NCBI GenBank assembly: GCA_013297755.1
Contig: JAAFIH010000017.1
Span: forward strand, 26,264-90,263
DNA length: 64,000 nt
Reading direction: 5' to 3'
From: Cytophagales bacterium
GTDB taxonomy: Bacteria > Bacteroidota > Bacteroidia > Cytophagales > UBA9547
Shown here: positions 2,826 to 55,307 of the stretch, piece by piece
Numbering within the stretch: position 1 is the first letter of the stretch
How the letters are laid out: every line of letters begins with the position of its first letter
Program-made: the position numbers and the translations under genes
Notes under the pieces: model-generated
Database searches by the model: none
Seen by the model: only the letters and a program-made list of their open reading frames with translations
What the model was told of the DNA's origin: nothing

Positions 2826-4619
2826 ATGGCTGATATTAGTTTTAGACCAGAAAGTAAAGTTCTAAATGAAATTTTTGGCAGAGATATTAAATATATCATT
2901 CCTGAATACCAAAGACCTTATTCTTGGGATTGTCTTGGGAAAAGCGATCAAAATAATCAGGTAAATGTAATGTGGGATGATTTGGTAAACTATTTTGAAA
3001 GTAACGACCAAAAATATCCATATTTTATTGGTTCAATGGTATTGATAGATAATAACAATTTTAGTTATGATGTGGTCGATGGGCAACAAAGACTAACTAC
3101 TCTGATGCTGCTTTTATCCTCAATAAAATGCTTATTTGATAAGCAAATTGTAATTTATGAGCAAAAAAACAACCCAGAATTTCTAAATACATTAAAAGCA
3201 GGATTAACGTCTATAAATGAGCTTTTATTTAATAACATAATAGAAGGAGTAATTACTTTGGAAAAGAAAGTAAAAATAGATAAACAATCGAGTGGTTATA
3301 ATTTTGATGAAGTTTTAAAAGATGCCATAGAATGTAAAGAATACAAAGAGGAAAGCTATAAAAATGCTAGTTCAGAACAAAAATCAGCAATTAAAAGATA
3401 CTTTAACAATAGAAATTTTTTAGAAAAAAAAGTTTCAGAAAAATTTACCACTCTTGGCGAATTCAACAAAACAGATTTTATTAATCTTAATAAGTTTATC
3501 CATTTTTTAAAAACTAAAGTATCTGTAGTAAGAATACTTACATCAGACATTACAATTGCTTACCATATTTTTGAAATTTTAAATAATCGTGGACTTCCAT
3601 TATCTAATAAAGATTTATTTAGGAATTTTTTAATAAAAAAATTCACCGAAATTGGAGATATTGAAGCAAATAAAAAATGGTTGGCTCTTGAGAATATATA
3701 TGATTTTAATGATGATTTTCTAGGAAGATGGGTAGAAAGTACGAATGCTAATCAGCAAAAATATTCTTCATATAATGATGTGATTGCTCTATATGATTCA
3801 AAATATCATGATTCAATATCTAAAAAGAAAATTGAAATTTTTTATGAGGATTTTAAAAATGCCTTGCCACTTTATGAAAAGATATTAAATGTAGATTTTA
3901 AAACAAGATTCTTTAAAACCAAAATTAACTTCTTTTTAGTTGCAGGTAATCAAAGATATAGCCTAAATCTTCTTCTATCACTTTTAAGAAATATTCAAGA
4001 AAATATTGAACAAAATGAAATTGCTAAAATCATTTTAGCTGAATACGATAAATACATAAATTATTGTTTAAGTTTTGGTAGATTTTCATCAAAACCTGTT
4101 TATAAATGTATTGATTTTATCAATAAGAAACAATGGGATAATGCAGTAAAAGAATTTTCCCAACATTATGATCAACAAGAAGTGTTAGAAGGCTTTGAAA
4201 ATGATTTTTATGGAAATAATGAAACTCCAAAACTTTTTCTTGCAAAATATCATTGGTATTCTACCTTTAAAGATGACGATGTAATTTCAGATTCAACTCT
4301 TTATTTTGATAAATGCACATTAGAGCATATTATTCCCCAATATCCAACAGAAGAGTCTCAGTGGAAAAAAGATTTTAAAAAGAAATTTAGAGAAGATTAT
4401 ACTTACAAGCTTGGAAACATGACATTAGTTACTTCAAAAATGAATTCAGCTGCAAAAAACTATGACTTTATCGAAAAGAAAAAAAAATATGCTTATTCAA
4501 ACCTTCCTATGACTATTGAACTTGCAAATTTACATGAAGAAATTTCTGAAAAATATATTTCAAATAGAAATAATAGTATCACTCAAATATTAATAAAAGA
4601 AATCTCTAATACTTATTAG
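2826..4619 (+). CDS. GmrSD-like type IV restriction enzyme (DUF262 + DUF1524)
   Basis: N-terminal IPEYQRPYSW and DGQQRLTT (DUF262 ParB-like NTPase motifs). C-terminal EHIIPQ ... LGNMTLVTSKMNSAAKN (DUF1524 His-Me finger motif). Confidence 0.75.
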   Translation: MADISFRPESKVLNEIFGRDIKYIIPEYQRPYSWDCLGKSDQNNQVNVMWDDLVNYFESNDQKYPYFIGSMVLIDNNNFSYDVVDGQQRLTTLMLLLSSIKCLFDKQIVIYEQKNNPEFLNTLKAGLTSINELLFNNIIEGVITLEKKVKIDKQSSGYNFDEVLKDAIECKEYKEESYKNASSEQKSAIKRYFNNRNFLEKKVSEKFTTLGEFNKTDFINLNKFIHFLKTKVSVVRILTSDITIAYHIFEILNNRGLPLSNKDLFRNFLIKKFTEIGDIEANKKWLALENIYDFNDDFLGRWVESTNANQQKYSSYNDVIALYDSKYHDSISKKKIEIFYEDFKNALPLYEKILNVDFKTRFFKTKINFFLVAGNQRYSLNLLLSLLRNIQENIEQNEIAKIILAEYDKYINYCLSFGRFSSKPVYKCIDFINKKQWDNAVKEFSQHYDQQEVLEGFENDFYGNNETPKLFLAKYHWYSTFKDDDVISDSTLYFDKCTLEHIIPQYPTEESQWKKDFKKKFREDYTYKLGNMTLVTSKMNSAAKNYDFIEKKKKYAYSNLPMTIELANLHEEISEKYISNRNNSITQILIKEISNTY

Positions 4620-46706: not shown

Positions 46707-47129
46707 TTAGATAAAACTGCAATTATAAAAAATTTTAAACGGACATTCTTTTGCAAGTTCGTCATAACCTTTGTCGTTGTGTACTAAAGTTATGTTAGAA
46801 TTTATGGCATAAGTAGCAATTAGGCAATCATTGGGTTTACGAATTGTAATTCCTTTTTTACGAAGATGAAAATACATTTGAGCAGCGAGAACAGACATTT
46901 CGTAAGGATTAGCTTCAATCCTTTTTATATCGTCAATTATACTTTTTAAATGAGTGAATTTTCTAGCATCTGATACCCCTTGTAATATTTCTTGAACAAT
47001 TGGTGGACAAATAAAATTATTGTAAGAAGAAAAAATCTTATCTTTTAATAGTTCCGTTCTTACTTCATTCACTCCTTTGATATAATTAATCCAGATACTT
47101 ATATCAAACATTACTTTCCCATTTGTCAT
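46707..47129 (-). CDS. vapC: type II toxin VapC (PIN domain)
   Basis: MFDISIWINYIKG (first acidic residue), IVQEILQG, and NDCLIATYAI...LVHNDKGY. The start is possibly the internal ATG at 47111, which overlaps the vapB stop. Confidence 0.75.
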   Translation of the reverse strand: MTNGKVMFDISIWINYIKGVNEVRTELLKDKIFSSYNNFICPPIVQEILQGVSDARKFTHLKSIIDDIKRIEANPYEMSVLAAQMYFHLRKKGITIRKPNDCLIATYAINSNITLVHNDKGYDELAKECPFKIFYNCSFI

Positions 47130-47316
47130 AAGTTCTCATTTCATCTAAATTGCCAACCCAAGAATTTTCACCACGCATTTTTTCAAACTCGATTAGTTTT
47201 AAAAGTCTTAAATGTGTGTCTAAGGCAATATCTACTGCTTCTTTTTTAGTTTTGAATTTGCCCATTTGCATTAACAATTCCATTTTTTGATCATCTATTT
47301 CAATATTTGTCCTCAT
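47104..47316 (-). CDS. vapB: type II antitoxin VapB (DUF2191-like)
   Basis: MRTNIEIDDQKMELLMQ...KKEAVDIAL N-terminus, 70 aa, overlapping the PIN gene. Confidence 0.7.
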   Translation of the reverse strand: MRTNIEIDDQKMELLMQMGKFKTKKEAVDIALDTHLRLLKLIEFEKMRGENSWVGNLDEMRTYDKWESNV

Positions 47317-47362: not shown

Positions 47363-47409
47363 AATTCATAATTCATAATTCATAATTCATAATTCATAAT
47401 TCATAATTT
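47363..47409. repeat. heptanucleotide tandem array (AATTCAT)x6-7
   Basis: Read directly. It occupies the gap between the SDR stop (47410) and the vapB start. Confidence 0.85.
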
Positions 47410-48320: not shown

Positions 48321-49892
48321 CTAGATATTATAAAATTTTATTGCATTTTTTGCCATGATTTTTTCTTGTTCGTTGATACTTAAATCAGAAATATAGTTTG
48401 ATACAATTCCTAAAACTTGTTGATAATCAGCGGCTAGTAAACACACAGGCCAATCGGAGCCATAAATCAATCTATCAGTTCCAAACGTGTTGAAAACGGT
48501 ATCTAATACTTGTCTAAAATCAGATTCTTTCCAACTTTGCCAATGGGCTTCGGTTACCATGCCTGAAACTTTGCAAAATACATTGGGCAAATGTTTAAAT
48601 GCCTGCATATCATTTTTCCATTCACTAAAATCTTGGTTACGAATATCAGGTTTAGCCAAATGGTCAATCACAAATTTTTGATTTGGAAATTCTTGAACCA
48701 GTTCCAATGCCTCTTCCAATTGATGTGGTTTTAGTAATAAATCGTAAGTATAATTTTGGTTTTTAAGCTTTGAAATAAAATATCTAAACTTATCATCAGA
48801 CATAAATCCGTTTGGCTTTGCTTGGATGATATGTCGGAAACCTTTTAATAGTTCGTAGTTGGGAGTTTGTAGTTGGGAGTTCGTAGTTGGGAGTTCGTGG
48901 TTGGGAGTTCGTAGTTGGGAGTTCGTAGTTGGGAGTTCGTGGTTGGGAGTTCGTAGTTGGGAGTTCGTAGTTGGGAGTTGGGAGTTCGTAGTTAGGAGTT
49001 CGGAGTTAGGAGTTGGGAGTTCGTAGTTGGGAGTTCGTAGTTGGGAGTTAGGAGTTAGGAGTTGGGAGTTCGTAGTTAGGAGTTGGGAGTTCGTGGTTCG
49101 TGGTTCGGAGTTATTTTTCTCCGAACTAAAACCTTTCTCCGAACTACGAACTACGAACTCCGAACTATTACCTTTCTCCGAACTACGAACTCTGAACTCC
49201 GAACTATTTCCTTTCTCCGAACTACGAACTCCGAACTCCGAACTATTTCCTTTCTCCGAACTAAAACCTAAATCTGCCCAGCCCACAACACCTTTTATAA
49301 AATCATGTTTTGAAGCCAAATCTAATAAAAACTCTGTTTCTTGCCATGTTTCGGCAGCTTGAACGGCAATAATTCCGTAGTTTGTAGTTGGGAGTTCGTA
49401 GATGGGAGTTCGTAGTTCGTAGTTGGGAGTTCGTAGTTCGTAGTTGGGAGTTCGTGGTTCGTAGTTGGGAGTTCGTGGTTGGGAGTTTTTTTTCTCCGAA
49501 CTCCGAACTCCGAACTCCGAACTATTTTTTTTCTCCGAACTACGAACTAAGTTCTCCAAACTATTACCTTTCTCCGAACTACGAACTACAAACTCCGAAC
49601 TAAAACCTTTCTCCGAACTCCGAACTCCGAACTCCGAACTATTATTTTTCTCCAAACTATTACCTTTCCCCGAACTACGAACTACGAACTCCGAACTATT
49701 ACCTTTCCCCGAACTACGAACTACGAACTCCGAACTATTACCTTTCCCCGAACTAAAATCATCAGGAAGAAATGATTTTTTAATCACTTCCATTCCATCA
49801 CCAATCCAATCAAATTCTGGATTATTTGCATCGTAATTCCAAAAATGCACATGAGAATCTATAAAGTTCACGGTTGGTTGTTGGTTGTTCAT
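48321..49892 (-). CDS. amidohydrolase-2 family protein (L-fucono-1,5-lactonase-like) carrying two in-frame repeat insertions
   Basis: Conserved blocks FIDSHVHFW, GIIAVQAAE, GVVGWADL, KGFRHI, FVIDHLAKP and LIYGSDWPV. They are interrupted by about 126 and about 139 codons of low-complexity sequence. Total is 523 aa against my recollection of roughly 280-290 aa for this family. Confidence 0.75.
   Translation of the reverse strand: MNNQQPTVNFIDSHVHFWNYDANNPEFDWIGDGMEVIKKSFLPDDFSSGKGNSSEFVVRSSGKGNSSEFVVRSSGKGNSLEKNNSSEFGVRSSEKGFSSEFVVRSSEKGNSLENLVRSSEKKNSSEFGVRSSEKKNSQPRTPNYEPRTPNYELRTPNYELRTPIYELPTTNYGIIAVQAAETWQETEFLLDLASKHDFIKGVVGWADLGFSSEKGNSSEFGVRSSEKGNSSEFRVRSSEKGNSSEFVVRSSEKGFSSEKNNSEPRTTNSQLLTTNSQLLTPNSQLRTPNYELPTPNSELLTTNSQLPTTNSQLRTPNHELPTTNSQLRTPNHELPTTNSQLQTPNYELLKGFRHIIQAKPNGFMSDDKFRYFISKLKNQNYTYDLLLKPHQLEEALELVQEFPNQKFVIDHLAKPDIRNQDFSEWKNDMQAFKHLPNVFCKVSGMVTEAHWQSWKESDFRQVLDTVFNTFGTDRLIYGSDWPVCLLAADYQQVLGIVSNYISDLSINEQEKIMAKNAIKFYNI
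48847..49262. repeat. inverted-arm heptamer element inside the lactonase CDS (insertion 2)
   Basis: Plus strand: about 263 nt of TTGGGAG/TTCGTAG units, then the apex TTCGGAG-ttattttt-CTCCGAA, then about 145 nt of CTCCGAA/CTACGAA units with CTATTTCCTTT spacers. Confidence 0.85.
49377..49755. repeat. inverted-arm heptamer element inside the lactonase CDS (insertion 1)
   Basis: About 110 nt of TTGGGAG/TTCGTAG units, then the apex GGGAG-T8-CTCC, then about 262 nt of the complementary CTCCGAA/CTACGAA units in 39-nt higher-order repeats. Confidence 0.85.
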
Positions 49893-49898
49893 AGAGAA

Positions 49899-50255
49899 TT
49901 AAGATTTTATTGATTTTTTTAGTCCACTTATCATTTTGATTATTTCTTCTAATTTTTGGTATTGATTATTAAAGTCTACCTCTAAAATTATATTTCTTTT
50001 TTTTCCAAGATGCAAACAACTAACACATTCTATTGCTGACCTCATGGCTATTGAAAGAAATCTAGCAAATTCAGGTTTTGTCTGACCAGTTGAACCTTCT
50101 GCAATATTTAATACAATAGAATCAGCAGCTCGTTGAAATTGGCTTGATAAAACATACTTTTCTTCGGAAGGGAATTTTTTTATCAAAATATTAACTTCTA
50201 AAGAATAATCTAAAGCCTTTTGCCAAACTTGTAAGTTTTCAAAATTAAATGCCAT
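49899..50255 (-). CDS. four-helix-bundle protein (23S rRNA intervening-sequence protein family, TIGR02436-like)
   Basis: FENLQVWQKALDY...FPSEEKYVLSSQFQRAADSIVLNIAEGS...EFARFLSIAMRSAIE, 118 aa. Confidence 0.8.
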   Translation of the reverse strand: MAFNFENLQVWQKALDYSLEVNILIKKFPSEEKYVLSSQFQRAADSIVLNIAEGSTGQTKPEFARFLSIAMRSAIECVSCLHLGKKRNIILEVDFNNQYQKLEEIIKMISGLKKSIKS

Positions 50256-50256
50256 G

Positions 50257-50437
50257 GTTTTTGGTTTTTAGTTTTTAGTTGGGAGTTCGTAGAATTTAGT
50301 TGGGAGTTCGTAGAATTTAGTTCGTAGTTCGTAGAATTTAGTTTGTAGTTCGTAGAATTTAGTTCGTAGTTCGTAGTTGGGAGTTGGTTGTTCATAGAAT
50401 TGAGTTTTTAGTTGGTGGATTTTAGTTTTGGAGTTTA
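50257..50437. repeat. heptamer array, G-rich orientation (left arm of a large intergenic inverted repeat)
   Basis: 21-nt higher-order unit AGTTGGGAGTTCGTAGAATTT x4 plus TTTTTAG/TTGGGAG units. It is the reverse complement of the array at 50663-50874. Confidence 0.85.
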
Positions 50438-50662
50438 TTTTGAAATTATTAGTCTATCGATTAAATTATTTTTTTTGGGATAAATAGTTACTAAGTGATG
50501 TTACGCTGATTTTTTTTTAAATCATTGTCAGTCTTATTTTTTCAAGCATTCATAGGTTATTAACAATATTAAAATTTCAATAAAATTATAGTTTTGCGTA
50601 ACATCAATTACTAAATATAACTTATTAACTGGATTCGACATAAAATTTAATAAATAATAAAC

Positions 50663-50874
50663 TAATTACAACAAACTACAAACAACGAACAATCGATTCC
50701 CAACTCCCAACCACTAACTCCCAACTATGAACTAAATTCTACGAACTACCAACTACGAACTACGAACTAAATTCTACGAACTCCTAACTACAAACAACGA
50801 ACTAAATTCTACGAACTCCCAACTCCTAACAACGAACTCCCAACTCCCAACTACGAACTCCCAACTACCAACTG
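50663..50874. repeat. heptamer array, C-rich orientation (right arm)
   Basis: It contains AACTAAATTCTACGAAC x3, the exact complement of the left-arm unit, plus CTCCCAA/CTACGAA units. It runs into the last codons of the FAH-family gene. Confidence 0.85.
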
Positions 50875-51807
50875 TCTTTGCTCTCCCAACCCATCTATTC
50901 CCAACTCTACTATATCACCTGCTTTTAGGTATTGTGGTGGATTGAATCCTAATCCTACTCCTGCTGGAGTTCCAGTAGAAATTACATCTCCAGGCAATAA
51001 AGTCATAAATTGACTGATGTAGCTTACCACAAATGGCACATTGAAAATAAAATCATTGGTATTGCTATCTTGCTTCATTTCTCCATTTACTTTGAGCCAA
51101 AGTCTAAGATTGTGCACATCTTTTACTTCATCTTTGGTGGCTAAAAATGGACCAAGAGGAGCAAAAGTATCGCAGCCCTTTCCTTTATCCCACTGTCCGC
51201 CACGCTCAAGCTGAAAAGCTCTTTCACTATAATCATTATGCACACAATAGCCGGCAACATAGTTTAATGCCTCATTTTCAGACACATAAGTGGCTTTTTT
51301 GCCAATTACAATAGCAAGTTCTACTTCCCAATCGGTTTTTTCAGAGGTTTTTGGAATTATAATATTTCCGTTGGGGTCGTTCAAGGCAGTGGTAGATTTA
51401 AAGAACAAAATAGGCTCTTTAGGAATAGGCGAATTGGTTTCGTGGGCATGAAGTCTATAATTCAATCCTACACAAACTATTTTAGATGGACGAGCTACGC
51501 AAGAAGCCAGTTTGGGAGTTGGGGCTTGGGAGTTCGTAGTTGGGAGTTCGTAGTTCGTAGTTGGGAGTTGGTAGTTCGTAGTTGGGAGTTGGGAGTTCGT
51601 AGTTGGGGCTTGGGAGTTCGTAGTTGGGAGTTCGTAGTTCGTAGTTGGGAGTTTGTCCAATTCTAAGGTTTTTAGTTTTTCAAGCCCACCATATGCAAAG
51701 AAATCTTCATTAAAATCTGAAAAGATGCTGCTTACATCATAGATTTTATCATTGGCTAATAAGCCTGGTTTTACTTGATTGTTTTGGTAAAATCGTACTA
51801 GTTTCAT
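50851..51807 (-). CDS. fumarylacetoacetate hydrolase (FAH) family protein; candidate 2,4-diketo-3-deoxy-L-fuconate hydrolase, with an in-frame heptamer insertion
   Basis: PSKIVCVGLNYRLHAHE, WEVELAIVIGK, QWDKGKGCDTFAPLGP and TLLPGDVISTGTPAGVG. A 46-aa LPTTNYE/LPTTNSQ tract lies between the N-terminal lobe and the catalytic domain. Confidence 0.8.
   Translation of the reverse strand: MKLVRFYQNNQVKPGLLANDKIYDVSSIFSDFNEDFFAYGGLEKLKTLELDKLPTTNYELPTTNSQAPTTNSQLPTTNYQLPTTNYELPTTNSQAPTPKLASCVARPSKIVCVGLNYRLHAHETNSPIPKEPILFFKSTTALNDPNGNIIIPKTSEKTDWEVELAIVIGKKATYVSENEALNYVAGYCVHNDYSERAFQLERGGQWDKGKGCDTFAPLGPFLATKDEVKDVHNLRLWLKVNGEMKQDSNTNDFIFNVPFVVSYISQFMTLLPGDVISTGTPAGVGLGFNPPQYLKAGDIVELGIDGLGEQRQLVVGSS
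51514..51651. repeat. heptamer array inside the FAH CDS (single orientation, 138 nt)
   Basis: TTGGGAG/TTCGTAG/TTGGGGC units on the plus strand. The coding strand reads the stop-free CTCCCAA/CTACGAA version as (LPTTN[YS][EQ])n. Confidence 0.85.
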
Positions 51808-54467: not shown

Positions 54468-54630
54468 GTTTTTTAGTTTTTAGTTGGGAGTTCGTAGTTG
54501 GGAGTTGGGAGTTGGGAGTTCGTAGTTGGGAGTTCGTGGTTGGGAGTTCGTAGTTGGGAGTTCGTAGTTGGGAGTTAGTAGTTAGTAGTTGGGAGTTCGT
54601 GGTTTTTAGTTCGTGGTTTTTAGTTTGAAG
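54468..54630. repeat. heptamer array TTGGGAG/TTCGTAG (G-rich on plus strand)
   Basis: Read directly. It fills the gap between the ABM-domain gene and the mutarotase gene; the sense (minus) strand reads CTCCCAACTACGAA up to the mutarotase ATG. Confidence 0.9.
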
Positions 54631-54651
54631 TTCCATTTCATAAACACTATG

Positions 54652-54966
54652 TTAGCTATTGTTTTTATTTTCCGATTCAAATATCGTTTCGTAATGTTCA
54701 ACTGTCGGAAACGGGTCGTAATAATGATGCAAAATCTTTTTCCATTCCAAATATTCTGCTGATAGTCTAAATCCAATTGTATGGTCTTCCAAATTTTCCC
54801 AGTCCACAAGCAAAATGTATTTATTTTTCTGTTCCAAACATTTTCGCAATGAGTGTCTCAAATACCCTTTAATAGAACTAATATATTGTCCTGCTATCAA
54901 AAAATCTTTTTCAAAGTTATCTTCTTGTCCACTTTTTACATTCAATATAGCAACTTCTAAAATCAT
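54652..54966 (-). CDS. antibiotic-biosynthesis-monooxygenase (ABM) domain protein
   Basis: 104-aa ferredoxin-like fold pattern (ILEVAILNVKSG...FE..F ... LLVDWENLEDHT.GFR). Confidence 0.65.
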   Translation of the reverse strand: MILEVAILNVKSGQEDNFEKDFLIAGQYISSIKGYLRHSLRKCLEQKNKYILLVDWENLEDHTIGFRLSAEYLEWKKILHHYYDPFPTVEHYETIFESENKNNS

Positions 54967-55155
54967 ATTTCTTCAACTTTTGATTGTCTTTTTGTTCTAT
55001 TGAAGTAAATCAACCCTACTTTTTTTGAAGTTTTATTTACATTTTGTAAAATAAAAGCTAACATTGTTTTTAGTTTTTAGTTAGTTTGTAGTTAGAGACA
55101 TTAAGTTTATTTTTAAAGTTATAATTATATGTATACTTATTTTAATTTTAAATCA

Positions 55156-55307
55156 ACAACCTACTCCCAACACCCAACTACGAACACCCAACTACAAACT
55201 ACGAACTACGAACTCCCAACTACAAACTACGAACTCCAAACCACGAACTCCCAACTACAAACCACGAACACCCAACTACAAACTACGAACTACGAACTAC
55301 TAACTCC
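55156..55307. repeat. heptamer array CTCCCAA/CTACGAA/CACCCAA (C-rich on plus strand)
   Basis: Read directly. It abuts the stop codon of the second fucosidase (55308). A short opposite-orientation array (55066-55096) lies about 60 nt away. Confidence 0.9.

Follow-up and report, generated by a model that had tools for sequence, protein, structure and literature searches.

A PF05635 four-helix-bundle gene beside a giant heptamer hairpin in an L-fucose operon, and the heptamer-armed layout of its relatives

PF05635/TIGR02436, the 23S rRNA intervening-sequence (IVS) protein family, is large and widespread, and we know of no function for it outside diversity-generating retroelements (DGRs); nor, to our knowledge, has an explanation been given, over decades, for the heptamer arrays of bacterial genomes (the cyanobacterial STRR, GGGAATC of Xanthomonas, TAACTGA). 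The subject of this work is a four-helix-bundle gene of the family (hereafter the bundle gene) situated in the L-fucose operon of a Cytophagales bacterium next to a giant hairpin made of heptamers. It lies in a stretch of 64,000 nucleotides, referred to below as the window, whose numbering is used throughout (contig JAAFIH010000017.1 of assembly GCA_013297755.1, positions 26,264 to 90,263 of the forward strand). The closest described system is the IVS of Coxiella burnetii, which encodes the protein S23p, carries three tandem copies of GACAGAT before the start codon and has a 28-bp terminal stem, the middle of which is cut by RNase III in vitro (PMC4990558). Heptamer arrays have been described in Xanthomonas (GGGAATC, with about 70 convergent pairs) and Nostoc (GGGGA(C/T)T) (PMC4692102), and, with the unit TAACTGA, in Beggiatoaceae, Cyanobacteria and Bacteroidetes (PMC4679880). 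The four-helix-bundle family is not mentioned in either of the latter two papers, as judged by a term search, and full-text literature searches for the family names found no description of a cassette joining such genes to heptamer arrays; in the searchable literature a link between family and heptamers was found in print solely for the Coxiella IVS (PMC4990558).

The locus is probably a resident PF05635 cassette, expanded and rearranged at this site, that acts within the operon transcript as a stem processed by RNase III. Such a cassette would consist of the bundle open reading frame (ORF) placed between a 5' array of G-strand heptamers and a 3' array of C-strand heptamers, the unit being specific to the locus. 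The ORF, of 118 aa, is intact, and its product matches PF05635 over the whole profile (positions 1-106 of 106; E = 3.9e-34, 117.5 bits, cut-off 33.8) as well as TIGR02436 (E = 5e-32, 110.3 bits, cut-off 24), in agreement with the first-pass annotation, which had assigned the gene to the 23S rRNA IVS-protein family. The nearest solved relatives by sequence are 2gsc (XCC0516; E = 4e-11) and 2rld (E = 7e-6), both of which have five chains as deposited. All the genes discussed here are on the minus strand: a gene for an FAA-hydrolase (FAH) is followed by a gap of 619 nt, the bundle ORF, a gap of 6 nt and the gene for an Amidohydro_2 lactonase, so that the site is the FAH–lactonase cistron junction of the operon. 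The 6-nt spacing between the stop codon of the bundle gene and the lactonase start, also given previously, corresponds to bases 49893-49898, with the ATG at 49892. The gene does not occupy helix 25 or 45 of the 23S rRNA but stands between the FAH and lactonase genes, and the region has no match to an rRNA or any other Rfam family. The Bacteroidota -7 motif TAnnTTTG, the single motif scanned for, is absent from the minus strand between FAH and the bundle ORF (50256-50874), for which reason a promoter of its own for the bundle gene was rejected; this absence fits co-transcription with the operon. Several other gaps of the fucose operon also hold arrays, and some arrays lie inside coding regions. 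It is also worth mentioning that adjacent ORFs of 140 and 70 aa within the operon, adjoined by a perfect (AATTCAT)x6.6 array (the whole at 46707-47316 and 47363-47408), resemble by eye a VapBC-type toxin-antitoxin pair.

Upstream of the bundle gene, a G-rich arm, an AT-rich core and a C-rich arm had been described in the first pass, together with an inner inverted repeat of about 23 bp, higher-order units shared by the arms and the capacity of the operon transcript to fold into a long stem, and all of these features are borne out. The three blocks lie where they had been placed and measure 175, 229 and 215 nt, respectively (Table 1). Arm 1 is built of the units AGTTGGG/AGTTCGT, combined with AGAATTT into higher-order units of 21 and 35 nt, the two periods found in the arms by Tandem Repeats Finder (TRF). 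Within the core, positions 50484-50506 pair with 50596-50618 (23 nt at 87%). The outer end of arm 1 (50851-50874) supplies the last codons and the stop codon of FAH, while arm 2 reaches to 23 nt before the bundle-gene ATG and thus places heptamers directly upstream of the ORF start, as in the Coxiella IVS. The best inverted repeat between the arms is 152 nt long and 72% complementary; over a stretch of 104 nt complementarity rises to 79%. For the RNA from 50880 to 50256 a folding energy of -229.3 kcal/mol was calculated, against -117.7 +/- 6.0 for shuffled sequences (z = -18.7), and in a predicted fold of 1041 nt arms 1 and 2 form a duplex of about 150 bp. In the minimum-free-energy structure of the same 1041 nt the outermost units of arm 1 (50884-50858) pair with 49863-49895, past the ORF, and the 23 A-rich bases preceding the bundle-gene ATG are unpaired. 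Contigs from three independent DNA runs of a biofilm metagenome tile 49700-51000 with zero differences, which rules out an assembly artefact.

The compact counterpart of this structure was found among the relatives of the gene. A search of a 5.8-billion-protein collection gave closest homologues with 78-80% identity to the bundle protein, and for several close homologues precomputed Pfam has a faint PF22296 (bAvd) annotation. One of them (P0003, locus L120, on an 81-kb contig) is flanked by the same neighbours: an FAH of 283 aa precedes and a lactonase of 295 aa follows the bundle gene (118 aa, 78% identity), with gaps of 81 nt before the ORF and 24 nt after it. Its 5' arm consists of about 11 G-strand heptamers (AGTTAGT TCATAGT GAGTAGT TCATAGT TCGTAGT ...) with the FAH stop codon inside, separated from the ORF by a spacer of 35 nt, and its 3' arm of 8 C-strand heptamers (ACTACCA TCTATCA ACTACCA ACTATGA ACCACGA ...) with the lactonase start codon inside; the layout in which a stem encloses the ORF is thus present in the ortholog. 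A global alignment of the two loci is collinear (FAH 86%, ORF 75-86%, lactonase start 77-82%), apart from some 515 nt that the window has in addition between FAH and the ORF. The FAH and lactonase genes of L120 lack the long in-frame arrays of the window and have seeds of only 2-3 units, at two sites in lactonase. The idea that the giant hairpin is the native shell of the bundle gene is not upheld, since at the same junction the ortholog has its ORF between short arms, and the hairpin would be a secondary elaboration. From the compact form of L120, with its seeds only, the cassette was evidently at the FAH–lactonase junction first; only afterwards did the giant hairpin and the additional arm arise and the unit spread to the genes next to it.

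The empty site was also sought: this gene order is absent from the relatives at genus or family level (in G011 a fucosidase stands between FAH and lactonase, in G002 other genes do), and the sole syntenic relative found, L120, is occupied. The next-nearest relatives of the bundle protein (68-70% identity; L122-L126, from Ekhidna and its relatives, gene at 3001-3354 or 1501-1854) are located inside a split metH, the gene for cobalamin-dependent methionine synthase, cut between the S-methyltransferase domain and the pterin/B12 domains; stops and starts overlap there, and each half-gene has heptamer arm sequence as its translated end. A shared AGTTCAx unit among the nearest homologues, a visual impression, was dropped, as the TRF consensus units differ by 2-4 positions.

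The rearrangement in the window left a direct repeat of about 60 nt, at 49865-49925 and 50368-50428, which runs from the last 27 nt of the bundle ORF through the spacer and the lactonase ATG into the first heptamers. Its local alignment score of 47 compares with 21.4 +/- 3.3 for shuffled sequences (maximum 36; z about 7.8). The right copy is the real junction, and its remnant of three to four C-strand units (AACAACC AACAACC AACCGTG) is a residual 3' arm corresponding to the 8-unit 3' arm of the ortholog. The left copy, with a degenerate 3' end of the bundle gene, starts arm 2 and has kept the ATG: an ORF at 50210-50395 begins MNNQLPTTNYEL, to be compared with MNNQQPTVNF of the lactonase. The two copies bracket 503 nt, in which most of the ORF lies together with 112 nt of arm 2.

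The core proved to be of a different origin from the arms. About 95 nt of it are unique and the remainder is a short non-coding element of 138 nt with the properties of a transposable element of the miniature inverted-repeat kind (MITE): its 23-nt ends (TAAnTAACTGATGTTACGC) are terminal inverted repeats of 87% complementarity, identical with the inner repeat mentioned above, and blastn finds at least seven dispersed copies elsewhere in the genome, at 76-91% identity. The AT-rich core with its own inverted repeat, previously taken as part of the hairpin, is in this respect an unrelated insertion; the MITE evidently landed in the hairpin loop and does not belong to the cassette. Elements of this family measure about 135 nt, and of the eight copies two sit in the loop of a heptamer hairpin. 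The end sequence of the element also terminates four contigs (C3, C61, C23 and C38). Repeated insertion sequences usually show up as sequence shared by contig ends, and a full-length insertion sequence with TAAnTAACTGATGTTACGC ends therefore probably exists. Like known MITEs, the core element combines small size with terminal inverted repeats of about 20 bp, at least eight copies and ends shared with a longer element, and it differs from them in that no target-site duplication is defined for it. Two other origins of the core were considered and abandoned: a remnant of a second bundle ORF or of the ortholog spacer, to neither of which there is significant similarity beyond the ~60-nt repeat, and a small RNA, for which no Rfam match at E <= 1 was found.

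Table 1. Coordinates of the features of the window locus, of MITE copies and of PF05635 cassettes discussed in the text.
Feature	Position or locus	Strand	Remarks
FAA-hydrolase (FAH) gene	51807 to 50851	minus	
Arm 1	50660..50874	minus	215 nt; C-rich on the plus strand; in mRNA sense the 5' G-rich, C-poor heptamer array
Core	50431..50659	.	229 nt, AT-rich, hairpin loop
MITE-like element	50480..50617	.	138 nt; terminal inverted repeats TAAnTAACTGATGTTACGC (23-bp inner inverted repeat)
Arm 2	50256..50430	minus	175 nt; G-rich on the plus strand; in mRNA sense C-rich, G-poor heptamers
Left copy of direct repeat	50368..50428	minus	degenerate bundle-gene 3' end, spacer, lactonase ATG (50395-50393), first heptamers
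Bundle ORF, PF05635/TIGR02436	50255 to 49899	minus	23S rRNA intervening-sequence protein family
Right copy of direct repeat	49865..49925	minus	real bundle-gene 3' end, 6-nt spacer, lactonase start, heptamer remnant
Amidohydro_2 lactonase gene	49892 to 48321	minus	
MITE copy	C30:16758-16890		91%
MITE copy	C67:118097-118234		85%; placed between inverted heptamer arrays
MITE copy	C13:67531-67697		
MITE copy	C5:92818-92937		
MITE copy	C6:76047-76147		
MITE copy	C16:65979-66055		
MITE copy	C28:3483-3584		
PF05635 copy (window)	C9		AGTTCGT/AGTTGGG
PF05635 copy	C42		AGTTATG arrays facing CATAACT arrays
PF05635 copy	C25		GGTTAAT facing ATTAACA
PF05635 copy	C56		TAATGYG arrays
PF05635 copy	C70b		AATTGAG arrays
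PF05635 copy	C6		octamer
PF05635 copy	C70a		two units only
fadB–fadA cassettes	L001, L041, L045, L050, L056, L061, L064, L071, L075, L098, L102, L109		
fadA–acyl-CoA dehydrogenase cassettes	L043, L048, L053, L059, L062, L068, L076, L081, L082, L084, L091		

The association of the family with heptamers is not confined to this locus. The genome (4.24 Mb, 32% GC) contains seven PF05635 genes, five of which are flanked on both sides by period-7 arrays no more than 250 nt away, and the genome-wide co-localisation proposed as a check in the first-pass annotation is thereby found; of the remaining two, one has octamer arrays and one only two units. Among all 3080 ORFs, period-7 arrays on both sides occur at 15, three of them PF05635 genes. 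The canonical layout is present in four to six of the other copies, and in the complementarity of their flanks canonical copies rank 4th and 7th among 3043 genes. Period 7 leads the tandem repeats of the genome as a whole (206 TRF rows, versus 19 for period 6), and the 195 period-7 arrays, which make up 0.45% of the genome, form 126 clusters, mostly without a bundle gene. The correspondence between array families and bundle genes, considered as a rule of one family per gene, is not one-to-one.

Several other arrays of this genome deserve a record. The GC-rich AGTTGGG/AGTTCGT arrays occur at about ten unlinked loci, and in a genome of such low GC content an independent origin is hard to accept. 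At 54481-55305 an ORF of 104 aa with an ABM domain (54652-54966, minus strand; PF03992, E = 5e-9) is enclosed in inverted arrays of these units, G-first and with a complementarity score of 74; here a gene of another family stands in a like hairpin 4 kb from the cassette. The one RVT_1 gene noticed in the genome, a reverse-transcriptase-like ORF of 512 aa (C67:11320-12858, E = 1e-12), does not lie near the bundle gene; it has period-7 arrays in direct orientation on its two sides, of which that at C67:12993-13594 measures 600 nt.

Across bacteria, 116 oriented loci were compared: 30 from 30 relatives, six from this genome and 80 from a one-genome-per-species scan, the last set leaning to one subfamily (narrow alignment, pattern [VI]S[IV][PAS]SN[IF][AV]EG). 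The scanned loci belong to Bacteroidota, Ignavibacteriae, Fibrobacter, Clostridia, Acidobacteriota, Gemmatimonadetes, Planctomycetes, Verrucomicrobiota, Chloroflexi, Betaproteobacteria, Desulfosarcina and a bacterium of the candidate phyla radiation. Around PF05635 genes of some ten phyla the armed layout with inverted arrays is present, and the suspected link between the bundle family and heptamer or palindromic repeats is supported beyond the five of seven genes found here. In 31 of 79 loci the upstream and downstream flanks are more complementary to each other than the 99th percentile of cross-locus pairs, and a score of at least 12 is reached by 60 of the 79, versus 17 in direct orientation. 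Most arrays adjacent to the ORFs have period 7 (97 of 121) and a minority period 8 (15), with a density of 1.9 per kb near the ORFs against 0.16 per kb farther off. Of the 56 loci with arrays on both sides, 41 have a downstream unit that matches the reverse complement of the upstream one with at most one mismatch, the cross-locus chance being 3.3%. The arms have a fixed chirality, with more G than C upstream (50 of 58 loci) and more C than G downstream (76 of 85); since the chirality of an inverted repeat is the same on both strands, it is independent of ORF direction. The G-strand units contain 8% C and have no common motif.

Some junctions are occupied repeatedly. Twelve loci lie between a gene ending in ...TGKPLRN and the thiolase gene (fadB–fadA), eleven between thiolase and acyl-CoA dehydrogenase, five at sucB–lpd and four at mraY–murD, and these groups range over several classes of Bacteroidota. 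The junctions on either side of thiolase apparently belong to a fatty-acid beta-oxidation operon, one of the carriers being Fodinibius. Within a junction group the units differ (GAGATTT, TGTATAA, CTAGATG, GAGTATT and others) while the two arms of each locus stay complementary, which means that pairing is conserved and sequence is not.

The following history and function would account for the window locus. A cassette whose arms overlapped the stop and start codons of its neighbours would have been present at the FAH–lactonase junction in the common ancestor with the 78%-identical relative. Its arrays would have grown by slippage of units; next, the junction between the 3' end of the ORF and the lactonase start, together with the C-strand array, would have been copied upstream of the ORF, leaving the 60-nt direct repeat, and the extra copy would have expanded into arm 2; in a third step the 138-nt MITE would have been inserted in the loop. 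In the operon transcript arm 1 would fold on arm 2, and its outer units on the short 3' remnant. The long duplex may then be a substrate of RNase III, as in the Coxiella IVS, and its cleavage would part the FAH message from that of the bundle gene and lactonase and would determine how the RNA is folded around the two start codons. By analogy with that IVS, an operon-internal stem processed by RNase III is the most likely function, and a gene for RNase III is present in the genome (G000:C69:108901-109281). A 5' arm poor in C and a 3' arm poor in G, each written in about three bases, would fit a role at the level of the transcript, as a single arm of that composition cannot fold on itself. It may be speculated that the C-rich arm, attractive to Rho, is never exposed without its partner. 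The arrays may instead act at the DNA level or be bound by the predicted pentamer of the bundle protein.

Several observations weigh against this interpretation. The long stem of the window has no ORF inside, as both long arms are upstream of the bundle gene, and because they do not flank it the flank complementarity of this copy ranks only 585th among 3043 genes. The copy retains period 7 and the G-first chirality of the hairpin; however, the array directly 5' of its ORF is of the C-strand type, one of 8 exceptions among 58 loci, and its 3' arm has shrunk to 3-4 units. Of the proposed duplication and deletion, significance attaches to the direct repeat only, and the remainder of the loop resembles neither an ORF copy nor the ortholog spacer, so the argument for that history is the repeat itself. 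In the stems of 85 armed loci, read in sense orientation, A.C mismatches (175) outnumber G.U (127), and the missing excess of G.U weighs against selection on the sense RNA, although the ambiguity of array register makes the test noisy (pooled p = 0.007, per-locus sign test p = 0.17) and the difference may be an artefact of register. Finally, heptamer hairpins without any bundle gene are common in the genome, and the arms therefore do not need the gene in cis.

The processed-stem reading has to be weighed against the mobility of the cassettes, which is an unlikely alternative. Arms and ORF would form a transposable or homing cassette with the arrays as terminal repeats and the bundle protein as a nucleic-acid-binding mobility factor, and the 60-nt direct repeat would be the footprint of an insertion or of a circular intermediate. 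Such mobility has long been proposed for the IVSs (PMC4990558). Between cassettes at different junctions the units match (at most one mismatch) in 4-7% of pairs below 50% protein identity, in 19% at 50-60% and in 48% (15 of 31) at 60% or more, which indicates that arms and ORF can travel or co-evolve together; the trend owes much, however, to one subfamily with GAGATTT arms found at three different junctions. Proteins from the same junction cluster weakly (on a poorly resolved tree of 120 columns junction labels require 17 changes versus 22.1 when shuffled, and group A is not clustered), and the closest relatives of the window protein include those at other junctions, such as the split metH. 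On the other hand, the cassettes have no transposase, integrase or nuclease associated with them, no regular target duplication was seen, and the seven copies of the genome share neither arms nor near-identical sequence. Occupation of the FAH–lactonase junction in the sole syntenic relative found also speaks against mobility, and the filling of fadB–fadA, fadA–acyl-CoA dehydrogenase, sucB–lpd and mraY–murD in entire classes of Bacteroidota is as compatible with long residence as with repeated insertion.

Slightly less probable still is that the bundle protein reads its own arrays, a pentamer binding tandem heptamers at about one unit per protomer, with the gene autoregulated through the arrays at its flanks and the dispersed arrays of its unit serving as a regulon or being propagated by the protein. 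Each of the seven genes has a unit of its own, many unlinked loci carry arrays of one and the same unit family, the arrays of a cassette's unit cluster within a few kb of that cassette, and 5 of about 8 major array families include a pair flanking a bundle gene. Unit similarity follows protein identity, and the five chains of both 2gsc and 2rld suit a pentamer; Avd, a member of the family, was reportedly found by Alayyoubi et al. in 2013 to be a nucleic-acid-binding pentamer. Against such reading stand the same-junction homologues of 40-60% identity, which mostly have different units (match rate 16-25%), and the units themselves, in which nothing is conserved but C-depletion. No PF05635 gene is flanked by either of the two largest array families, AATAATC with 33 arrays and AACTTAT with 20, and obtaining five different families in five draws has an estimated chance of about 0.15.

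In a wider and doubtful form of the same idea, PF05635 genes and heptamer arrays would be one bacteria-wide genetic system, in which the pentamer reads arrays of its own unit or helps to propagate them: the gene with two inverted arrays would be the autonomous form, the 23S rRNA IVSs copies that landed in rRNA, and the gene-less hairpins and arrays offspring that spread to nearby junctions and, in this genome, also into the coding regions of FAH and lactonase. The excess of heptanucleotides, long noted in bacterial genomes, would be explained if this were true. The view that the arms are functionless heptamer microsatellites grown by replication slippage, with the bundle gene merely situated in such a gap, could draw on the dominance of period 7 in the genome, the many clusters without a bundle gene, the arrays in other gaps and even coding regions of the operon and the published ascription of the bacterial heptamer excess to polymerase slippage (discussed in PMC4692102), but it is very improbable, since enrichment around the bundle family is far above chance here, recurs in phyla whose genomes are not rich in such arrays otherwise and comes with reverse-complement arms of fixed chirality, a pattern that slippage alone does not give.

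The significance of the data is that they join the family and the arrays: in many phyla the gene is packaged between inverted, locus-specific heptamers in the same build as the Coxiella IVS, the one case studied by experiment. The rules of the package, as put forward for testing, are that the G-strand arm comes first on both strands, the arms use three letters, complementarity is kept while units drift, and unit and protein are co-inherited. The window copy and the compact ortholog constitute a natural before-and-after pair, with the cassette first and the same unit later in neighbouring coding sequences; the particular value of the locus is in its rearranged anatomy, the compact ortholog, the MITE and this evidence for the cassette preceding the spread of its unit. 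If the stems are RNase III sites, the cassettes would be a general device, or a parasite, cutting operon transcripts at cistron junctions.

Among known systems, Avd, the accessory protein of DGRs, belongs to the same Pfam family or clan and is, like the window protein, a small four-helix bundle, but the window gene has no DGR reverse transcriptase, template repeat or variable repeat adjoining it. The ORF-bearing 23S rRNA IVSs of Coxiella burnetii and Leptospira (PMC4990558) share with the window copy a protein of the PF05635/S23p family and embedding in a host transcript with no promoter of their own in evidence, and the Coxiella IVS also has tandem heptamers before the ORF and complementary ends forming a long stem. 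The window copy differs in its place between protein-coding cistrons instead of helix 25 or 45 of the 23S rRNA, in arms of 175-215 nt versus a stem of about 28 bp, in a main stem that stands beside the ORF and not around it, in a loop holding a MITE and in a processing that is predicted only. With the published heptamer arrays (PMC4692102, PMC4679880) the window arrays have in common a strict 7-nt period, a mostly intergenic location often upstream of starts, frequent convergent pairs and a position conserved between relatives; those arrays, however, have one unit per genome, whereas here locus-specific units bracket a defined gene family.

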